Virus record (IMG/VR): IMGVR_UViG_3300020045_013299
Location: 1 to 25,236 of that record
Source of the DNA: a virus
Lineage: Duplodnaviria > Caudoviricetes
Length of the DNA stretch: 25,236 bases
Reading direction: 5' to 3' (one strand)
Shown: piece by piece, positions 3,472-16,672 of the stretch
Layout: each line of letters opens with the position of its first letter
Numbering within the stretch: position 1 is the first letter of the stretch
The notes under the pieces: model-generated
Databases searched by the model: none
The model's input: only the letters and a program-made list of their open reading frames with translations
What the model was told of the DNA's origin: nothing
Program-made: the position numbers and the translations under genes

Positions 3472-3924
3472 ATGAAGCAACGGAAAGCAAGTCTTTTTCG
3501 TCGAGGTACAATTGAGGAGAAACTATATCATGTCTGGTTCAATTTCATAGACCGTTGTAGTAACCCTTTTCATCCGGCATACAGTCGATACGGTAAACGA
3601 GGGATTAAAGTCTGCGAAGAATGGAAAAGCTTTGGTCCGTTTCTTAAGTGGGCTCGTCAAGGATATAAAGAGGGACTTTGGCTGGATCGTGAAGATAACG
3701 ATGGAGATTATACTCCAAACAATTGTCGATGGATCACCCCGGAAGCTAGTAGAAATAACGTCCGGGGAACTAAATGGCTAACCGCTTTTGGCGAGACCAA
3801 AACAATCAGTGATTGGGTTAAAGACCCTCGTTGTAAAGTTCGTCACGACACACTCGCAGCTCGTATCAAATATGGATATGAACCCGAAACAGCAATCATA
3901 ACACCTTCAAGAGGTTTGAAATGA
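3472..3924 (+). CDS. HNH-family (homing-type) endonuclease
   Basis: YGKRGIKVCEEW...LDREDNDGDYTPNNCRW...RNN motif; AT-richer than neighbours; AGAGGAG SD. Confidence 0.85.
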   Translation: MKQRKASLFRRGTIEEKLYHVWFNFIDRCSNPFHPAYSRYGKRGIKVCEEWKSFGPFLKWARQGYKEGLWLDREDNDGDYTPNNCRWITPEASRNNVRGTKWLTAFGETKTISDWVKDPRCKVRHDTLAARIKYGYEPETAIITPSRGLK

Positions 3925-5378
3925 GTTTTACACCGACAGAAGAGCAGGTGACTATCGTTACTGCTGCTCGAGAAACAAAAGAAAACCTGATTATATCGGC
4001 ACTAGCCGGGGCTGCAAAGACATCCACGTTGGTACTCGTTGCCAATGAATTGAAATCAGTACCTATCTTGTGTTTGGCTTTTAACAAGCGTATCGCGGAT
4101 GAAATGCGGGAACGCCTCCCAGGCAACTGCGAGTCCCGCACCCTCAACTCCCTCGGCAACAGCATCCTCCGCGACATGATCGGCAAGTTCCCCAAGGTTG
4201 ACGGCCGCAAGATCTCCACCCTCATCTACGAGGCAGTCTCCGCCATGGACTCCGGCGATGAGAAGAAGCGCGCCTTCGAGTCTCTTTCCGACTACGGCCG
4301 CGTCATATCCCTCGCCAAAGCCAACGGCTATATCCCTGATGGTTACACCCGGCCAGGGCTCCCTCCCCCGAAACCTCTTTGCGGTGACGAGGCGTTTGAA
4401 GACTTCTTCCAAGAGGAACCGGCCCCCTTCGAGATCGCTCTCTTGCGAAGCATCTACATCGAGTCCCTGAACATGGCCTTCGCCGGGAATGCAGACTACG
4501 ACGACCAGATCCTAATCCCAACCGTATTCCAGGCCCCATACCCTCGGCCTCCGTTGACCCTGATCGACGAGGCCCAGGACCTTTCGCCCCTCAACCACGC
4601 GATGCTGAAGAAACTGGTGGGAACTAGAAGGCTGATCGCAGTGGGCGACGAGTGTCAGGCCATCTACGGTTTTCGCGGGGCGGACGCCCGGTCGATGAAG
4701 AAACTGGAAGATGAGTTCTCGATGAAAAAACTCATCCTTTCCGTTAGCTTCCGCTGCCCCGTCTCCATCGTCGAACACGCCCGCTGGCGAGCCCCCCACA
4801 TGAAGTACCCCTCCTGGGCCATCCCGGGGGAGGTCCGCGATTGGCATGAGTGGACCATCGAGGAGATTCCTTCGGAAGCTGCGATCGTCTGCCGCAACAA
4901 CGCTCCGCTCTTCGCCCTCGCGATGAAGATGCTCAAATCCGGGCGCTACGCTCAGATCGTCGGTACCGAACTTACGAAGAACTTGCTGAAGACGATGAAG
5001 AAACTCGGCCCCCCGTCGATGCCACAAGAGAAAGTGCTCATCGCCCTTGACCAGCAACTGGCAACCAAGTTGGAGAAAAGTAAAGACCCCGGGCCACTCC
5101 GTGACCGCTTCGAGTGCATGAAGGTATTCGCGAGGGAGGGGAAGACGTTGTCTGAAGCCATGGCCTTCGCTGAGCATATCTTCAATGCTCAGTCGCCAAC
5201 GCTCCTAATGACAATTCATAAGAGCAAGGGGTTGGAGTTCAACGACGTTTTCATCCTCAACCGTGAATTGCTGAAGAAGGAAGGGCAGGATAAGAACCTA
5301 CTTTATGTAGGTCAGACTCGAACGAAGAACACGTTGACGTATATTGATCTTGAAGGAGTGAATGAAAATGTCAATTAA
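3921..5378 (+). CDS. SF1 UvrD/Rep-like DNA helicase
   Basis: motif I ALAGAAKT, II LIDEAQD, III VGDECQAIYGFRGA, IV SFRCP, V TIHKSKGLEF, VI YVGQTR. Confidence 0.93.
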   Translation: MSFTPTEEQVTIVTAARETKENLIISALAGAAKTSTLVLVANELKSVPILCLAFNKRIADEMRERLPGNCESRTLNSLGNSILRDMIGKFPKVDGRKISTLIYEAVSAMDSGDEKKRAFESLSDYGRVISLAKANGYIPDGYTRPGLPPPKPLCGDEAFEDFFQEEPAPFEIALLRSIYIESLNMAFAGNADYDDQILIPTVFQAPYPRPPLTLIDEAQDLSPLNHAMLKKLVGTRRLIAVGDECQAIYGFRGADARSMKKLEDEFSMKKLILSVSFRCPVSIVEHARWRAPHMKYPSWAIPGEVRDWHEWTIEEIPSEAAIVCRNNAPLFALAMKMLKSGRYAQIVGTELTKNLLKTMKKLGPPSMPQEKVLIALDQQLATKLEKSKDPGPLRDRFECMKVFAREGKTLSEAMAFAEHIFNAQSPTLLMTIHKSKGLEFNDVFILNRELLKKEGQDKNLLYVGQTRTKNTLTYIDLEGVNENVN

Positions 5379-6283: not shown

Positions 6284-6434
6284 GCCCCGAGTCTTTAGCC
6301 ATAGGGACTCGGGGCACCATTTCTTCGCACTTCACCTCCTCCCGAAGATGCGAAGCTCCCGCGAAGCAAGGTTTCCCCTCATTTTCCTTGCAACGCAAAT
6401 TGAGTCCCCGGTTCCGCCATGATCCGGGGACTCA
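6284..6434 (+). ncRNA. putative structured RNA: four hairpins, one with a CCUCCUCCC anti-SD loop
   Basis: stems at 6284-6315, 6323-6355, 6366-6391 and 6401-6434 in a 198-bp intergenic gap. Confidence 0.5.
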
Positions 6435-6460
6435 TTCACTCCACAGCCAAGGAGGCTTTC

Positions 6461-6757
6461 ATGAAATTCCAATGCGAACTACGCGGCGCCAACTTCCGCT
6501 CTGCCGAGGATAAAGACGCGCTGAAGGCGTGCGCAACCGGGGATGAGCTTTACCTCCTCCGCGACACCAACAACCAGTATGACGAAAACGCCGTCGCCAT
6601 CTACGCCGACGCCGAGTTTGACTTCCATGTCGGCTTCGTAGCGAAAGAGACCGCGGAAGAACTTGCCCCGCTCCTCGACGAAGGCCACGAGTTCCGCTGC
6701 TACATTCACTCATGGCTATCGACGCTGAAGCCCTATGTCATCATCGAGCAAGTTTGA
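6461..6757 (+). CDS. HIRAN domain protein
   Basis: LRGANFR...GDELYLLRDTNNQYDENAVAIY...HVGFV...LAPLLD is the HIRAN signature; AAGGAGG SD. Confidence 0.88.
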   Translation: MKFQCELRGANFRSAEDKDALKACATGDELYLLRDTNNQYDENAVAIYADAEFDFHVGFVAKETAEELAPLLDEGHEFRCYIHSWLSTLKPYVIIEQV

Positions 6758-10093: not shown

Positions 10094-10233
10094 CCGAGTT
10101 TGATCGCTATGTATTTTATTATAACAAAAACGTATGCTATTTTCTTCATAGCTACGCCGGCATGTCATCCCCTGGACCGTTTATAACATTACATACCGTT
10201 TGCGTATTCGGATTGGATGGAGTAACCGGATGA
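10090..10233 (+). CDS. small AT-rich hypothetical protein (47 aa)
   Basis: ATGA overlaps at both ends; GAGGG SD. Confidence 0.5.
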   Translation: MTEFDRYVFYYNKNVCYFLHSYAGMSSPGPFITLHTVCVFGLDGVTG

Positions 10234-11498
10234 CCAGCGGCTCCTTCCAATCCATCCCCCTTTCCTCCATCATCATCAACCGCTCGGAGCGCCAACGCCG
10301 TGACCTCACCGACATCGAGGAACTCGCGGACAGTATTAATCGTATTGGTCTTATCCACCCTATTGTGGTCACTCCAGATATGGTTCTTGTTGCTGGTGAA
10401 CGTCGCTTCACAGCAATCAGCCTTCTCGGCTGGACCGCCATCCCCGCTCAGTTCACAACCGACCTGTCCGAACTAGAACTCGGCATCATCGAGCTTGAAG
10501 AGAACATTAAGCGGCAGGCGATTTCGTGGCAAGACGAGGCCCTAGCTGTTGATAAGTTCCACCGGCTGCGCCTTCAACAGAACCCCGAGCAGACCCTTGA
10601 CGAGACCGCGCAGGAACTTGGCCAGTCTTCCTCCGGCATATCTAAAAAGATAGCTGTAGCTAAGGAGATCGCCCGGGGTAACGTGCTGGTGAAGAACGCG
10701 GACAAGCTTTCAACCGCACAGAACATCACTGCCCGGGAACAGTCCCGTCGGCAAGCCTCGCTCGACACCATCGCAACCGGGCTGCTGGACGACTTCACCG
10801 GGGAGGTAACCGATGTTACAAAGAAAGTCCCGCTACTTAACACCGACTTCATCGAGTGGGCTGATGCATACACCGGCCGCCCCTTCAACCTTCTCCATTG
10901 CGACTTCCCCTACGGGGTCGACATGCACAAGTCCGGCCAGGGTGCGAACCAAGAGTTCGGTAGCTACGCTGATTCAGCTGACGTTTATTGGAAGCTGCTT
11001 GATTGCCTCGGGCGCAACATGGATTCTTTGGTAGCGCCATCAGCGCATTTGATCTTCTGGTTCTCGATGGATTATTACAATGAGACAATGGACATTCTCA
11101 CAAGGGCCGGCTGGAGAGTTAATGCTTTCCCACTTATCTGGTTTAAGTCTGACAATACCGGAGTCATACCTGACGCCCAGCGCGGACCTCGCCGGGTATA
11201 TGAAACTGCATTTCTCGCAAGCCGCGGAGATAGAAAACTTACTCCACGTGGGGCTGTGTCTAACCTCTTCGCTCACGCAGGCCGCAACAAAGAACTCCAC
11301 ATGAACGAGAAGCCGGTCCCCATGCTCACCCACTTCCTCAGCATGTTGACCGACGAATACACCCACTTCCTCGACCCCACCTGCGGCTCGGCCAACGCGG
11401 TCAAAGCGGCGGAGGCACTCGGTGCCAATTCGGTGCTGGGGATTGAGAAGAATGAAGAGTTCTTTCTGCGTTCTTCAGCCGCGTACTATGAAGACTAA
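10230..11498 (+). CDS. ParB-like N-terminal domain fused to an N6/N4-type DNA methyltransferase
   Basis: IHPIVV...LVAGERRFTA...IELEENIKR (ParB/Srx); HTH-like TLDETAQELG; HCDFPYG (motif IV variant), HMNEKP, FLDPTCGS (motif I). Confidence 0.85.
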   Translation: MTSGSFQSIPLSSIIINRSERQRRDLTDIEELADSINRIGLIHPIVVTPDMVLVAGERRFTAISLLGWTAIPAQFTTDLSELELGIIELEENIKRQAISWQDEALAVDKFHRLRLQQNPEQTLDETAQELGQSSSGISKKIAVAKEIARGNVLVKNADKLSTAQNITAREQSRRQASLDTIATGLLDDFTGEVTDVTKKVPLLNTDFIEWADAYTGRPFNLLHCDFPYGVDMHKSGQGANQEFGSYADSADVYWKLLDCLGRNMDSLVAPSAHLIFWFSMDYYNETMDILTRAGWRVNAFPLIWFKSDNTGVIPDAQRGPRRVYETAFLASRGDRKLTPRGAVSNLFAHAGRNKELHMNEKPVPMLTHFLSMLTDEYTHFLDPTCGSANAVKAAEALGANSVLGIEKNEEFFLRSSAAYYED

Positions 11499-11546
11499 CT
11501 GGGCCATACCCTTGAACCATTCACAAAGCCATATCGGAGAATCCAC

Positions 11547-11957
11547 ATGCCAAAGACATCCTTCATCGACTCCGTTGATTCCAACGCTCTTTCCGAAGCT
11601 ATGCAGAACGTCGACGCTGATCACCCCTTCACCGGCAATCAGGACTTCACCGTCGATGTAGCCGAAGAAGCGCCGATGCCCCACGCTCAGTATTCCGACC
11701 CTCTCCTCATCGAGCGCGAGACAACCCACGGAGACTACCGCAACACCGCCCGGATCATCCAGCGGTTGAAGGACACGCTGCTCGTCGAACAAGTTCGGCG
11801 GACCAAGCGCGGTCAACCCCGGCTCACCGACACACAGAAGGAATGCCTCGACATGATCGTTCACAAGATCGGGCGGATCGTATCCGGCGAGAGCGGACAC
11901 GCGGATCACTGGCAGGACATCGCCGGCTACGCCAAGCTCGCAAGAGCCGACGTATGA
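11547..11957 (+). CDS. DUF6378-like protein (putative nucleotide-processing alpha-helical domain)
   Basis: LIERETTHGDY...KIGRIVSG...DHWQDIAGYAKL signature; GGAG SD. Confidence 0.8.
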   Translation: MPKTSFIDSVDSNALSEAMQNVDADHPFTGNQDFTVDVAEEAPMPHAQYSDPLLIERETTHGDYRNTARIIQRLKDTLLVEQVRRTKRGQPRLTDTQKECLDMIVHKIGRIVSGESGHADHWQDIAGYAKLARADV

Positions 11958-12985
11958 AAATCCTCCTTCTCGGGGAAGCATTCTCGGAGGCCGACGAGCG
12001 TGTCGGTCTTCCGTTCCAGGGGCCGGCGGGGTGGTTCCTTCGAGACGCCCTGTCTTCCGTCGGAGTCGATTACAAGGATTGTTTCGCAACCTCCGTCTTC
12101 AATCTCCGCCCCCAGCCGAAGACCGACATCATCAACCTCTGCGGGTCAAAGACCGAGGCCATCCCGGGCCTCCCCGCGCTAGTCAAGGGCAAGTACGCCC
12201 GCTCGGAGTACATCAATGAACTTCGTAGACTTTACAAAGAAATTAACCGCGAGAACCCAAACATTATCATCGCGCTGGGAGCGACAGCGACGTGGGCGCT
12301 CTGCCACAGCGCTGGTATCCGTGCGGTTCGGGGGGCGTTCACCGTTACGCATCAGGATTGCGGGAAGAGTGTCGGTGTTCCACTCGCCCGCCAGTTCAAG
12401 GTAATGCCCACGTACCACCCCGCGGCAGTACTTCGCGAGTGGACCCTTCGCCCGATCGTCTATTCAGATCTAGATAAAGCGACGAGGAACAGTGGGTTTC
12501 CAGAAGTCATCCGCCCCACCCGTGAAGTCTGGATCGAGCCCACATTGGAGGACATGCTTCGTTATGAGAAAGAATACATCCTCCCGGCTGAACGACTATC
12601 GATCGACATCGAGACTAAGGGCGATCAAGTTACTTGTGTTGGCTTTGCTCCTTCCGTATCCTCCGCTATCGTCATCCCCTTTTATTCTTTCTCAGTCCCC
12701 GAAAGAAACTACTGGGCAAAGAAAGAAGACGAGTTATCCGCGTGGAAAATGGTGAAGAGGTGGTGCGAAAGCAAACCCTCAGTGTTTCAGAATGGCTGTT
12801 ACGACATGCACCGTCTCTGGCGAACCTACGGCATCCGCTGTGTACCAGCTGAAGACACCATGCTCTTGCACCACAGCTTGCAACCGGAAATGGAGAAAGG
12901 CCTCGGCTTCCTCGCTACCATCTATACCGAGGAGGCCTCTTGGAAATTCATGTCAAGGGTCGAAACATTGAAGAAGGAGGACTAG
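11954..12985 (+). CDS. uracil-DNA glycosylase-like domain plus the N-terminal part of the 3'-5' exonuclease (DNA polymerase subunit 1)
   Basis: LLGEAFS...PFQGPAG, IIALGATA, PTYHPAAVLR (family 4-like UDG); SIDIET (Exo I), QNGCYD (Exo II), DTMLLHH; no Exo III. Confidence 0.88.
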   Translation: MKILLLGEAFSEADERVGLPFQGPAGWFLRDALSSVGVDYKDCFATSVFNLRPQPKTDIINLCGSKTEAIPGLPALVKGKYARSEYINELRRLYKEINRENPNIIIALGATATWALCHSAGIRAVRGAFTVTHQDCGKSVGVPLARQFKVMPTYHPAAVLREWTLRPIVYSDLDKATRNSGFPEVIRPTREVWIEPTLEDMLRYEKEYILPAERLSIDIETKGDQVTCVGFAPSVSSAIVIPFYSFSVPERNYWAKKEDELSAWKMVKRWCESKPSVFQNGCYDMHRLWRTYGIRCVPAEDTMLLHHSLQPEMEKGLGFLATIYTEEASWKFMSRVETLKKED

Positions 12986-13183
12986 ATGAGTAAGACAGTC
13001 AGCACAAAGAACATCTACGCCCCGGATTTAGTTTCCGTGGAAGAGTTTGGCGAGCATAAATCTTTCGTCAACCGCGCAGCAACAACCAGAGTATGGACTT
13101 TTAAATCTGCGGATGACGCGAGAAAATTTGAAAAAGCTATTCAAGAAACACCGTCTAGATTTATTAGAGGGAAAAAGAAATGA
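12986..13183 (+). CDS. hypothetical protein between the polymerase halves
   Basis: AAGGAGG SD; abuts the upstream stop; ATGA coupling downstream. Confidence 0.65.
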   Translation: MSKTVSTKNIYAPDLVSVEEFGEHKSFVNRAATTRVWTFKSADDARKFEKAIQETPSRFIRGKKK

Positions 13184-13515
13184 TCTACCTCGCTTCCCCC
13201 TACTCCCACCCCGATCCACTCATCCGCAAGACCCGTTTCTTGCTAGCCGAGGAGTTCGTCGCCAACAACTTTCCCAAGCATATCTATTCCCCCATCGTTC
13301 ACTACCACGAGATGGCATTGAAGTTTAATCTCGAATCTGATTTTCAGAATTGGAAACAGATCAACTTCGACATGATCCGCCGAGCCGACGCCTTCTGGAT
13401 TCTTGACATCGACGGCTGGTATGAAAGTAAAGGCGTGACAGCAGAGGGTGACTTCGCCCGGGAATGCGGTTTCGATCTTCAACTAACGAGTGGAAAAGAA
13501 TGGCCCGGATCATAG
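13180..13515 (+). CDS. DUF1937-like protein (nucleoside 2-deoxyribosyltransferase-like fold)
   Basis: MIYLASPYSH...YSPIVH...W...ESKGVTAE signature. Confidence 0.82.
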   Translation: MIYLASPYSHPDPLIRKTRFLLAEEFVANNFPKHIYSPIVHYHEMALKFNLESDFQNWKQINFDMIRRADAFWILDIDGWYESKGVTAEGDFARECGFDLQLTSGKEWPGS

Positions 13516-15023
13516 ACACCTCGACCCTCACCCCCGAACGCCTCCGTTCCATGACCCAGGACGAATCTTACTGGGTCTACAACGGCCTTGACGTATGTGT
13601 CACCGAGGAAATCCTGCAACAGTTGTTGCCCCAGCTCGACGAAGTCACCCGCCCCACTTACGAGCTATCCAAAGCACTTCAAGCCCCGGTCCTCGAAATG
13701 TCCATGCGCGGGATTCTCGTCAACCAGAACACCCGCCGCAAGATTATGTCGAAGTTTCAAAAGCAGCTTAGGCAGCTTGAAGAACAGCTCGACGCCATCG
13801 TGGGTGAAGGGATCGGGGTGCCGCTTAACTGGCGCAGTCCCAAACAACTTGGCGAGCTTCTCTACGACATCATGGGCTTGCCCGAACAGAAGAAGAGGAA
13901 TACGAATGGAATCTTTGCAAGAACTACCGGCCGAGAGGCCCTCGAAAATCTTGGTGTGCATTTCCTCGCCGAACCACTCGTCAACCATCTGCTGCTCTTG
14001 CGAGACATTGGCAAGGCTCTCGGGTTTCTTGAGACTGGCATCGATACTGACGGACGTATGCGGACCAATTTCAATATCGCTGGAACTAACACCGGACGAT
14101 TTGCATCCTCAGCTTCGGATTACGGTACAGGAACCAACCTTCAAAATGTGGCGAGAGACCTTCGACGAGTCTTCGTCGCCGACCCGGGAATGAAATTCGC
14201 CAACCTCGATCTTGAGCAAGCTGACTCGCGCAACTTGGGCGCGCTACTTTGGGAGGTATTCTACGATGAACTCGGACCCGACGAAGCCGGGAAGTATCTT
14301 GACGCTTGTGAGTCGGGGGATCTGCATACTTTTGTCTGCCGCATGTGCAATTCGCAGCTCGCCTGGGGAACCGCACCGGACCGACAAATTGCGGATACAG
14401 TATTCTACCGTGACAAAACTTACCGAGACGGAGCTAAAGTTCTTGGACACGGCTCAAACTATCTTGGTACCCCCAGGACAATGGCAAAGCACACCAAGTT
14501 TCCAGCGAACCTTGTCGAGCAATTTCAGCACAAATATTTTGGGGCTTTCCCTGCCATCCCTCGCTATCATTCCTTCGTACGCGGCGCTATTAAAGACTAC
14601 GCCAGTCTCACAACATTATTTGGTCGACGTAGATTTTTCTTCGGAAGGCACACCGACGATGCAACCATTCGAGAGGCTGTTGCTTACTCTCCACAATCTA
14701 TGACCGCCGATGAGATCAACACCGGCATCCTCAATCTTTGGCGGGCGAACAAAGTTCAGCTTCTCGTCCAGGTCCACGACTCCATTCTCTTCCAATTCCC
14801 CGAACATCTTGAAAATGAAATCATTCCTTGGGCTCTTGAAAATCTCCGCGCACCTTTGAAACTAAAACACGGACGAGACTTTGTTGTTCCTACTGAAGCC
14901 AAGACAGGCTGGTCGTGGGGTGACTGGTCGGAAGATAACCCTGATGGATTAAAAAAGTGGAAGGGAAGTGATTCCCGAGAACGGAGTGAAAAATATGCCA
15001 AGCTCTCGATTAGAGCTCTCTGA
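13500..15023 (+). CDS. polA: family A DNA polymerase (Exo III + polymerase domain; subunit 2)
   Basis: YNGLD (Exo III), NWRSPKQL, GTNTGRFAS, NLQN, motif A DLEQAD, motif B RDGAKVLGHGSNY, motif C QVHDS. Confidence 0.93.
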   Translation: MARIIDTSTLTPERLRSMTQDESYWVYNGLDVCVTEEILQQLLPQLDEVTRPTYELSKALQAPVLEMSMRGILVNQNTRRKIMSKFQKQLRQLEEQLDAIVGEGIGVPLNWRSPKQLGELLYDIMGLPEQKKRNTNGIFARTTGREALENLGVHFLAEPLVNHLLLLRDIGKALGFLETGIDTDGRMRTNFNIAGTNTGRFASSASDYGTGTNLQNVARDLRRVFVADPGMKFANLDLEQADSRNLGALLWEVFYDELGPDEAGKYLDACESGDLHTFVCRMCNSQLAWGTAPDRQIADTVFYRDKTYRDGAKVLGHGSNYLGTPRTMAKHTKFPANLVEQFQHKYFGAFPAIPRYHSFVRGAIKDYASLTTLFGRRRFFFGRHTDDATIREAVAYSPQSMTADEINTGILNLWRANKVQLLVQVHDSILFQFPEHLENEIIPWALENLRAPLKLKHGRDFVVPTEAKTGWSWGDWSEDNPDGLKKWKGSDSRERSEKYAKLSIRAL

Positions 15024-15495
15024 ACAACTTGTGGGTCTACTAGATTATAATTCAGGTACAGGAGAGTTACGTTGGAAATATATAATGTCCACAAAGAAAC
15101 CAACATTGGAGGCCGGATGTATAAATAAAGATGGCTATCATGTAATTACATTTTGTGGAGTTCAGTTCTTTGGGCATATCTTAGCTTGGAGAATTCATTA
15201 TGGAGTTTGGCCTTCTTCTTTACTTGATCACAAAAACAGAAAACGAAACGAAAATCAAATAGATAATCTTCGAGAAGCTACAAGTCGCGAAAATCAACTA
15301 AACAGTTGTCGTTTCGATAAACCTTCAGTTGGTATTTCTTATAACGCTAGATGTAGAAAATGGAAAGTTACGGGAGGACGGCCTCAGAGAAAACACCTGG
15401 GGTATTATGAAACTTTCGAGGAAGCACAGGCGGCACGTGATGAACAACATAAAAACACTTCAGTCGGTAACACCAGCATCCGTGCGGAAATGTAA
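14995..15495 (+). CDS. HNH endonuclease with an AP2-like C-terminal DNA-binding domain
   Basis: LDYNSGTGELRW, HILAWRIHYG, LDHKNRKRNENQIDNLREAT, HLGYYETFEEAQAAR; AT-rich; GGAG SD before ATG 14995. Confidence 0.87.
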   Translation: MPSSRLELSEQLVGLLDYNSGTGELRWKYIMSTKKPTLEAGCINKDGYHVITFCGVQFFGHILAWRIHYGVWPSSLLDHKNRKRNENQIDNLREATSRENQLNSCRFDKPSVGISYNARCRKWKVTGGRPQRKHLGYYETFEEAQAARDEQHKNTSVGNTSIRAEM

Positions 15496-16672
15496 TAACT
15501 GGGTGGACTCCTTCGAGAATTACTGCGCTCACAAAGGCTCCCCCCAAATCTTCACTAAGTGGGCGGGCATCTTTACAGTGGCCGCCGCCCTTGAACGACG
15601 AGTCTGGATCAACACTAATAAGGGGAAGAACTTCGCGGGCATGTTCACCTTCCTCGTCGGTCCCCCGGGCGCGGGTAAAACCCTGGCGATGAAACTATCC
15701 CGGGAGTTCCTCGCATCCCTCGACAAGTTCCACCTAGCCCCGTCGTCAGTAACCAAGGCCTCGATGGTCGATGCACTTAGCGAAGCCGTACGTCAGATCA
15801 TCCGGCCGAAGGAGACCCCATCGATCATCAACTTCAACTCCGTCACCGTATCATCGAACGAGCTTGGAACATTCCTAACCGCTTATGAGTCCGACTTCAT
15901 GTCCTTCCTCACCGATCTTTGGGATGCGGATAACTATTCCGAGACCCGGCGTAGTTCCAAGCTCAACATCAAAATCGACAACCCTCAGATCAACATGATG
16001 GCCGCTACCACCCCGGCTTGGCTCACGGGCTTTCTCCCCGAGGGCGCGTGGGACATGGGTTTCCTATCCCGCGTCATGCTCGTCTACTCCGGCGCCGATG
16101 AGCCGGGGGATCTCTTCGCCGAGAACACCTACGATCAAGCCTTGAAAAAGGATCTCACCCATGACATTAAACAGATCTTCGAGCTATATGGGAAGATGGA
16201 GTTCACAGAAGATGCGGCGAAGCTTATCACGGCTTGGCACAAGGCAAAGGGCCCTCCCATCCCCGACCACCCGAAGCTTGCTCATTATAACACTCGCCGG
16301 ACTCAGCATCTTCTCAAGCTGTGCATGGTATCTTCTGTATCAGCTGGCAATGATCTTCTCATCACGGTAGAGAACTACGTCGAGGCCCTCGATTGGTTGA
16401 CCGAGATGGAGGAGACAATCCCCGATATCTTCAAATCAATGAAGACAGCCGGGGATAGTAAGACGATCGAAGAGGCGTATTATTATGTGTATAAAAGTTT
16501 CGCCCGGGATAAGAAGCTTGTCTCCGAACACCGCCTCCTCGCCTTCCTTTCCGAACGGACCCCGGCTCACAACGTCGAGCGTATCGCGGGGATCATGGTC
16601 AAGGGCGGGCTGCTTGTGAAGGAGTTCATGACCAGCGGTCTTTACGGGTATAAGCCGGGGGCAAAGGACTAA
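15440..16672 (+). CDS. DUF3987-like AAA+ ATPase, putative replicative helicase
   Basis: Walker A VGPPGAGKT, Walker B-like SNELG, LTDLWD, AATTP, GFLSR; start uncertain (ATG 15440 or GTG 15482). Confidence 0.75.
   Translation: MNNIKTLQSVTPASVRKCNNWVDSFENYCAHKGSPQIFTKWAGIFTVAAALERRVWINTNKGKNFAGMFTFLVGPPGAGKTLAMKLSREFLASLDKFHLAPSSVTKASMVDALSEAVRQIIRPKETPSIINFNSVTVSSNELGTFLTAYESDFMSFLTDLWDADNYSETRRSSKLNIKIDNPQINMMAATTPAWLTGFLPEGAWDMGFLSRVMLVYSGADEPGDLFAENTYDQALKKDLTHDIKQIFELYGKMEFTEDAAKLITAWHKAKGPPIPDHPKLAHYNTRRTQHLLKLCMVSSVSAGNDLLITVENYVEALDWLTEMEETIPDIFKSMKTAGDSKTIEEAYYYVYKSFARDKKLVSEHRLLAFLSERTPAHNVERIAGIMVKGGLLVKEFMTSGLYGYKPGAKD

Follow-up and report, generated by a model that had tools for sequence, protein, structure and literature searches.

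Split family A DNA polymerases were first reported in S-SBP1-like, T7-like cyanophages (Czernecki et al., 2023, PMC10201439; also bioRxiv 10.1101/325100). In the available part of that work, the polymerase is encoded as two genes after fission and a two-chain complex is predicted, as in the case described here, but the genes overlap, there is no uracil-DNA glycosylase (UDG) domain, and the lineage is T7-like. Our translation of S-SBP1 gp15 contains all three Exo motifs (I, DLES; II, HNIIGYD; III, YCIQD), which keeps the proofreading site on one chain. LUZ24 (Bruynoghevirus, NC_010325) also has separate genes for an exonuclease (gp25) and for polymerase parts (gp34/gp36), with several unrelated genes between them; gp25 carries all three Exo motifs (DLEGD, HNILDYD, and YCLQD) and there is no UDG domain. 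In both phages, therefore, the cut falls after the exonuclease domain. By contrast, single-chain UDG-PolA enzymes (SPO1-like, N4-like cluster 17, SP15-like phiLo, and YerA41) carry a family-4 UDG, an exonuclease, and a polymerase in that order on one chain, as far as the accessible portions of the sources describe them (PMC10201439; PMC13697223). Here, we analyze a 25,236-nt stretch of phage DNA (IMG/VR record IMGVR_UViG_3300020045_013299; the window), in which the same three domains are ordered in the same way on two chains and the cut passes between Exo II and Exo III. As we discuss below, these chains very probably dock non-covalently and would thereby rebuild one proofreading site from three small-chain residues (D218, E220, and D284) and two large-chain ones (Y27 and D31).

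Two gene products with one set of proofreading motifs

The polymerase genes and the features within them lie on the + strand. The small-subunit gene (11954–12985, 343 aa) encodes a family-4 UDG-like domain followed by Exo I and Exo II of a 3'-5' exonuclease, as judged from Pfam, PHROG, and PDB profiles and from an AlphaFold2 model. Pfam matches UDG over residues 2–165 (E 7e-17) and DNA_pol_A_exo1 over residues 217–325 (E 8e-5), the latter covering only profile positions 25–128 of 173, and the profile matches to solved family-4 UDGs reach a best E of 4e-20. Exo I is the motif SIDIET (12599–12616; D218 and E220) and Exo II is QNGCYD (12788–12805; N280 and D284). The chain then terminates 14 residues past a conserved W330-K331 pair, with its stop codon at 12983–12985, and Exo III starts 592 nt further on, in the large-subunit gene (13500–15023, 507 aa). 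This second gene encodes an N-terminal head, the Exo III helix, and a family A polymerase domain (Pfam DNA_pol_A, E 8e-33; PDB matches to PolA), with the Exo III motif YNGLD at residues 27–31 (13578–13592; Y27 and D31). The fold identity of both chains rests on sequence matches to the PDB, and a single profile, PHROG 17, spans both open reading frames (ORFs) end to end, with profile positions 480–796 on the small chain and 804–1235 on the large one. A sequence-only reading of the window had described a UDG-like domain with Exo I and Exo II that then stops, and an Exo III motif at the N-terminus of a separate downstream ORF; the domain matches and motifs agree with both descriptions.

We examined 184 loci including the window, which were assembled from the best 80 of 471 and the best 80 of 516 viral matches, 18 genome contigs, 7 close matches, and 4 named phages, and left out 29 duplicates and 8 loci without a second half on the available DNA. 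The 147 scorable distinct loci comprised 142 split and 5 fused ones, the latter distant, and thus bore out the earlier suggestion that related phages may share this layout, with the same cut. Below, the clade means the 142 split loci minus two (L105 and L106). All 140 clade loci keep D218, E220, N280, and D284. The Exo III Tyr and Asp occur in all 122 complete large chains and in all 131 aligned heads, against a median column conservation of ~0.61, and every one of the 142 split loci has a Y-x-x-x-D motif near the start of its second ORF. DEDDy nucleases require all three Exo motifs. The set in these phages (Exo I Asp/Glu, Exo II Asp, and Exo III Tyr/Asp) is complete and invariant, yet it resides on two gene products, consistent with the sequence-only proposal that the proofreading site would take its carboxylates from both chains.

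Prediction of the two-chain complex gave a score of 0.90, compared with 0.00 for the best of three controls; 51 of 78 solved complexes attain the mark used for this score, as do 2 of 108 mismatched pairs. The runs agreed in at least 91% of contacts, with a partner pLDDT (predicted local distance difference test score) of at least 89. The predicted interface takes in small-chain residues 216–218 and 220 and large-chain residues 24–43, and the Exo III helix plus the helices that follow would make 240–248 contacts with the partner. When the small chain was modeled alone, mean pLDDT was 90, with values of ~60–70 for residues 301–330 and ~50 for the tail. The lone model is thus confident except over residues 301–343, which are expected to pack against the Exo III helix in the complex.

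Covariation between the chains was analyzed in 131 paired loci, all split (effective number of sequences, 102), for which the interface background was 7.2%. Predicted-interface pairs made up 4 of the top 10 inter-chain pairs, 6 of the top 20, and 13 of the top 50; under another correction the counts were 4, 6, 12, and 18 in the top 10, 20, 50, and 100. Swapping partners between nearest relatives gave 1, 1, 5, and 6 in the same four ranks, and five shuffles gave at most 1, 2, 5, and 11. The signal in these alignments is modest, and the majority of top-ranked pairs are not on the interface list. The covarying pairs 195:3 and 189:8 and the predicted contact 192:5 (small:large chain) have residue sums that stay constant at 197–198, which is the register of an antiparallel strand pair. 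At 195:3, an acid faces a base in 71 of the 131 loci and a base faces an acid in 5; like charges never meet.

The strands concerned are small-chain residues 189–195 (12518–12538), picked out by both the interface list and covariation, and the large-chain head MARIIDTSTL (13500–13529), whose residues 1–10 lie in the predicted interface. The head is conserved in the split clade (I5 in 104 and T7 in 121 of 131 loci), and the short linker of fused relatives contains no equivalent. Because the head is conserved in the clade and is predicted to pair with residues 189–195, and because fused relatives have no room for it, we infer from the alignments and the model that the head strand would be a clasp that arose with or after fission. 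An alternative in-frame ATG upstream (13464) is an unlikely start for the large chain, as relatives begin MA(R/K)II and have the motif at residues 23–28 in 117 of 120 cases. A 12-bp hairpin (13553–13577) just 5' of the Exo III codons within the polymerase gene is probably due to chance.

These observations suggest how the two-chain enzyme may have arisen. An ancestral single-chain UDG-Exo-Pol gene would have broken in the loop that follows W-K. As in single-chain PolA, the large-chain Exo III helix would fold back onto the core of the exonuclease, and the new large-chain strand (residues 3–8) likely clasps small-chain strand 189–195, replacing the lost covalent link. Several points weigh against a shared site. 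First, given the likeness of both halves to solved single-chain PolAs, the complex score may reflect the predictor's familiarity with that fold, and it shows likeness rather than binding. Second, the two-chain prediction that had been proposed as a check returned a high score, but complete DEDD geometry is not visible from contact lists: active-site geometry lies beyond them, and D284 and D31 are absent from the lowest-error pairs listed. Third, the covariation set is shallow, 14 of its 20 highest-ranked pairs are absent from the listed interface, and one of the five shuffles produced 11 interface pairs in the top 100 compared with the 18 observed. Fourth, loci were ranked by likeness to split queries, and 142 of 147 therefore overstates the split share of the wider family. 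Finally, the case is built from sequence and prediction.

Gene coupling and alternative readings

The last codons of the small-subunit gene appear to serve the gene that follows. The codons of its terminal K-K-E-D (AAGAAGGAGGAC) include AAGGAGG (12974–12980), a putative ribosome-binding site 5 nt 5' of the next ATG. Across the clade, the last six codons out-pair synonymous recodings with the anti-Shine-Dalgarno sequence in 110 of 140 loci, compared with 100 of 246 internal control stretches, and AGG accounts for 55% of Arg codons in the tail versus 7% in the gene body. The next ORF starts −11 to +15 nt from the first-gene stop in 135 of 140 loci, a count without a chance control. The four window genes from the small to the large subunit adjoin or overlap one another; the polymerase-chain start overlaps the preceding gene by 16 nt and has only a weak Shine-Dalgarno match, GAGTGG (13488–13493), before it. 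Gap lengths in the clade range from −4 to 2802 nt (median 534). Scans for + strand promoter-like and terminator-like sites found none within the window gap. Because the genes overlap or abut, the gap contains no such site, and the two polymerase genes stand 10 nt or less apart in 13 of 140 loci, the sequence evidence favors translational coupling and steady co-expression. A query for sequencing runs covering the locus listed none, a result that is uninformative about expression. A ribosome-binding site in the tail would explain why the tail is conserved without giving it a catalytic role. The tail may therefore double as a ribosome-binding site for whichever gene follows, keeping the run translationally coupled, and this built-in site could let small genes enter and leave the junction.

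The gap itself (514 nt) is wholly tiled by two + strand ORFs, with no non-coding stretch. The first (12986–13183, 65 aa) has no Pfam or PHROG match and was found at only one other locus in the first survey. The second (13180–13515, 111 aa) matches DUF1937/DUF4406, a PHROG described as nucleoside 2-deoxyribosyltransferase-like, and PDB 1t1j (E 8e-5). The sequence-only reading had likewise reported two ORFs here, one DUF1937-like, and had given them Shine-Dalgarno sequences of their own; the one reservation concerns the weak GAGTGG match ahead of the polymerase chain. The 111-aa DUF1937 type is the commonest gap gene (35 of 78 split loci), but the 131 gap ORFs from these 78 loci scatter over 53 clusters, so the two window genes are passengers by this comparison, and a special role for them was rejected on the grounds that gap content is interchangeable across loci. 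Families identified among the 11 of 131 gap proteins scanned included DUF1937, DUF7768, MazG, HNH, RNA polymerase alpha-CTD-like, and FkbM methyltransferase; some gaps are empty. One gap-gene cluster occurs in 14 loci (for example, L010 5998–6267, L023 4992–5345, and L049 4974–5330), and two of its members match the RNA polymerase alpha C-terminal domain.

This arrangement bears on the idea, advanced in the sequence-only reading, of fidelity or uracil sensing tuned by subunit ratio. On this account the heterodimer exists, and the split persists because changing the relative amounts of the two chains lets the phage adjust either function. None of the 140 clade loci has reverted to a fused form, and differential regulation has been proposed for the S-SBP1 split in the part of that work available (Czernecki et al., PMC10201439). 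The overlapping and abutting genes, the position of the next ORF in 135 of 140 loci, and the gap with no + strand promoter-like or terminator-like site speak against adjustable ratios, as does gap content that varies at random among close relatives. In addition, the predicted model indicates that the Exo III helix and later helices would bare a large interface if the large chain lacked its partner. We regard tuning by subunit ratio as improbable.

A still less probable reading is that the small chain is a stand-alone repair enzyme, a UDG plus a nuclease, whose active site would be filled from within the chain, perhaps by the acidic tail, and whose contact with the polymerase would be loose or absent. 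The chain does end in Asp or Glu at 120 of 140 loci and, as noted above, is modeled confidently by itself. However, no tail position is invariant (at residue 343, Asp occurs in 82, Glu in 30, and other residues in 19 of 131 loci), the tail has low pLDDT and residues 301–330 lose confidence without the partner, and tail codons are biased towards a ribosome-binding site; on these three grounds we rejected a catalytic role for the acidic tail. This reading also leaves the invariant Exo III Tyr and Asp on the other chain unexplained.

Finally, it is scarcely credible that RNA splicing, a split intein, ribosome hopping, or frameshifting restores a single chain. Phage polA genes do often carry group I introns (discussed in the available text of PMC10580990), and the −4 overlap in ten loci could resemble a frameshift site. 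However, Rfam gives no match at E ≤ 1 across 11000–16500, the window gap has no non-coding run, and ordinary genes fill most gaps in relatives. Gap lengths are spread over all three frames (38, 21, and 19 of 78 loci) and reach 2802 nt. The 11–19 residues after W-K and 19–26 before Exo III are too few for intein halves, and the intein-like inserts of this lineage (six relatives) are 247–297 aa long, run from Cys to VTGN, and lie within the polymerase domain. A Pfam scan of the window proteins detected no intein family. Both an intron-interrupted polA gene (no Rfam match, no non-coding room, and gaps in all frames) and a gene fractured by a split intein (short tails and heads and no intein match) were thus rejected, together with frameshifting, as the sequence-only reading had anticipated when it noted neither intein ends nor an intron core. 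The intein-like inserts of the relatives are contiguous, are followed by Ser or Thr, and occupy two polymerase-domain sites, one of them within motif B: after residue 318 in P0140, P0143, P0150, and P0197, and after residue 211 in P0181 and P0196. Pfam found no intein family in the three that were scanned.

Origin of the split and other features of the locus

The fission is real, old, and widespread. Among proteins of 188–601 aa, the 120 best relatives of the small chain are 328–360 aa long and end 11–16 residues after W-K, and a search among longer proteins gave only 8 matches, at 27–36% identity. An IMG/VR scan gave 471 matches to the clade, whose size is thus gauged from capped scans. In nine fused relatives, W/Y-K runs into Y-x-x-x-D after about 8–20 residues, and the cut therefore sits in that loop. 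The nearest fused relatives found (Mel-JY34, MW202489, and P0241–P0247) are ~30–36% identical over the small chain. Fused forms are under-sampled, as a locus scan seeded with fused relatives gave no usable pattern.

Trees were built from 53 of the 142 split rows and 10 fused polymerase domains; L109 was left out, and L107 was left out of the approximately unbiased (AU) test. In a quick tree, 51 split rows, including the window and Caulobacter phage Kuura, formed one branch with a Shimodaira–Hasegawa-like approximate likelihood ratio (SH-aLRT) support of 91, and over these 51 rows the tree distances of the two chains correlate (r 0.83). L105 and L106 (from position 4001) are split in the same loop but sit on a long branch among fused polymerases, and their head is different or missing. 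One origin is thus not shown: these two loci group with fused proteins (2 changes), and a single fission is not rejected by the data (AU p 0.38). One or two fissions are therefore both compatible with the trees, and L105/L106 possibly represent a second, independent fission.

The polymerase domain has the hallmarks of family A, with the DNA_pol_A domain and motifs A, B, and C all present. Motif A is DLEQAD (14208–14225), whose D237 is Asp in 122 of 122 complete chains; motif B is KVLGHGSNY (14436–14462), with K313 and Y321 conserved and His317 (14448–14450) in all 122; and motif C is HDS (14775–14783), whose D427 is Asp in 119 of 122, the other three being truncated chains. We take His317 to be equivalent to F762 of the E. 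coli enzyme. The same His occurs in the consensus of the nine fused relatives; the literature searched contained nothing relevant to His at this position, the papers on it treating Phe, Tyr, and Leu. The last Asp of DLEQAD (14223–14225) presumably occupies the steric-gate position, E710 in E. coli; of 122 relatives, 50 share the window's Asp at this residue, 69 have Glu, and 3 have Gln.

The UDG-like domain (residues 1–178; 11954–12487) was delimited from Pfam, PDB profiles, and the clade alignment. We assume that the pocket roles are those of family-4 enzymes, namely motif A (GE-x-PG), the Glu, Phe, and Asn of the pocket, and the motif B His. Across the 140 loci, these positions are largely retained (Glu in 110, Phe in 125, Asn in 118, and His in 127, with 13 rows lacking N-terminal positions), and the motif A Pro is mostly replaced by Trp or Tyr. 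The window copy has motif A GEAFS..D14 and keeps F21 and the HP at residues 155–156; its pocket comprises D14, F21, S47, H155, F10, and S11, with S47 where 118 of 140 loci have Asn. At four of these positions (F10, S11, D14, and S47) the window copy departs from most clade members or from the fused relatives, so uracil sensing by it appears doubtful, and uracil removal is less likely there than in most of the clade. In SP15-like polymerases, the accessible text reports that the fused UDG touches the template strand (PMC13697223), and a processivity role has been proposed in the part of another source at hand (PMC3201878). Here, the safer guess is that the UDG-like domain likely grips the template strand.

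The window is a 25-kb phage contig in which a + strand replication block faces − strand lysis and virion genes. The block comprises genes for a UvrD-like helicase, a PD-(D/E)XK nuclease, a Sak4-like ATPase, a ParB-methyltransferase, the polymerase, an HNH protein, and a DUF3987 primase/helicase-like protein; no second polymerase gene was found among the 21 window ORFs scanned. The ParB-like domain fused to an N6/N4 DNA methyltransferase (10230–11498) lies upstream of the polymerase genes, and methylase genes occupy the equivalent place in Mel-JY34, MW202489, and VS-ABTNL-3. The AT-rich HNH endonuclease gene (14995–15495, 39% GC) overlaps the polymerase gene on one side and the beginning of the DUF3987 gene on the other, and a homologue of it is located within the split gap of L005/L012. 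A second HNH endonuclease gene (3472–3924) stands ahead of the helicase gene, and a stand-alone HIRAN domain gene is found at 6419–6757. Scans of the window for repeats, tandem repeats, and promoters or terminators gave nothing above chance.

Comparison with described polymerases

Among cultured phages, the podophage Caulobacter phage Kuura is nearest to both halves (35% identity over the small chain and 37% over the large). Kuura (OQ067476) has the same cut between gp029 and gp026, two gap genes, and a DUF3987-sized gene in the same downstream position, and it is a plaque-forming phage. In the portion of its description available, the polymerase is not described as split, gp029 is annotated as hypothetical, and the word 'uracil' does not occur in the main text (PMC9959647). 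The proposals made here are thus testable in a cultured phage, and the clade has hundreds of members. The split locus also illustrates how a replicase may survive fission, by way of a short new interface strand and a ribosome-binding site in a tail, and, were the large chain stable alone, it would provide a natural polymerase with proofreading as an add-on subunit. Correct annotation also matters in its own right, as small chains labeled 'hypothetical' or 'uracil-DNA glycosylase' make these polymerases look proofreading-deficient.

A more far-reaching possibility, which we consider unlikely in its entirety, is that these phages form a large undescribed lineage with an obligate two-subunit PolA, in which an inter-subunit proofreading site is held closed by a new beta-strand clasp, the UDG resides on the small chain, His occupies position 762, where nucleotides are selected, and dimer assembly switches on proofreading and template gripping together. 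If so, a phage or a host defense could shift mutation rate through one small protein.

In the full-text literature searched, which includes few subscription papers, we found no published cut between Exo II and Exo III; split phage PolA is already known, and a cut through the proofreading site was not found described. PDB 9qhs, of the single-chain UDG-PolA type, appears among our profile matches, and the word 'split' does not occur in PMC13697223. In MEP401, according to the available text (PMC10580990), and in Vibrio phage VS-ABTNL-3, the splits fall inside the polymerase domain. In the latter (L004, 24872–28006), the exonuclease is fused and the polymerase domain is interrupted by a 184-aa gene, possibly an intron. 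VpV262, considered as a further case, was set aside because its record is one gene with both domains. The window clade also differs from the S-SBP1-type cluster 5 at position 3 of motif B, which is His in the clade and Tyr in that cluster, as given in the available text (PMC10201439). The same text describes CCPol-MP of staphylococcal cassettes, a PolA that keeps only the last exonuclease helices, through which it is predicted to associate with a second, small protein, MP. In that system, however, no other part of the exonuclease is present and MP is a beta-barrel unrelated to it, whereas the window encodes the missing part upstream with its catalytic residues intact. The published split PolAs that we checked keep the proofreading domain whole, whereas here two genes would between them supply the catalytic residues of a single nuclease site.

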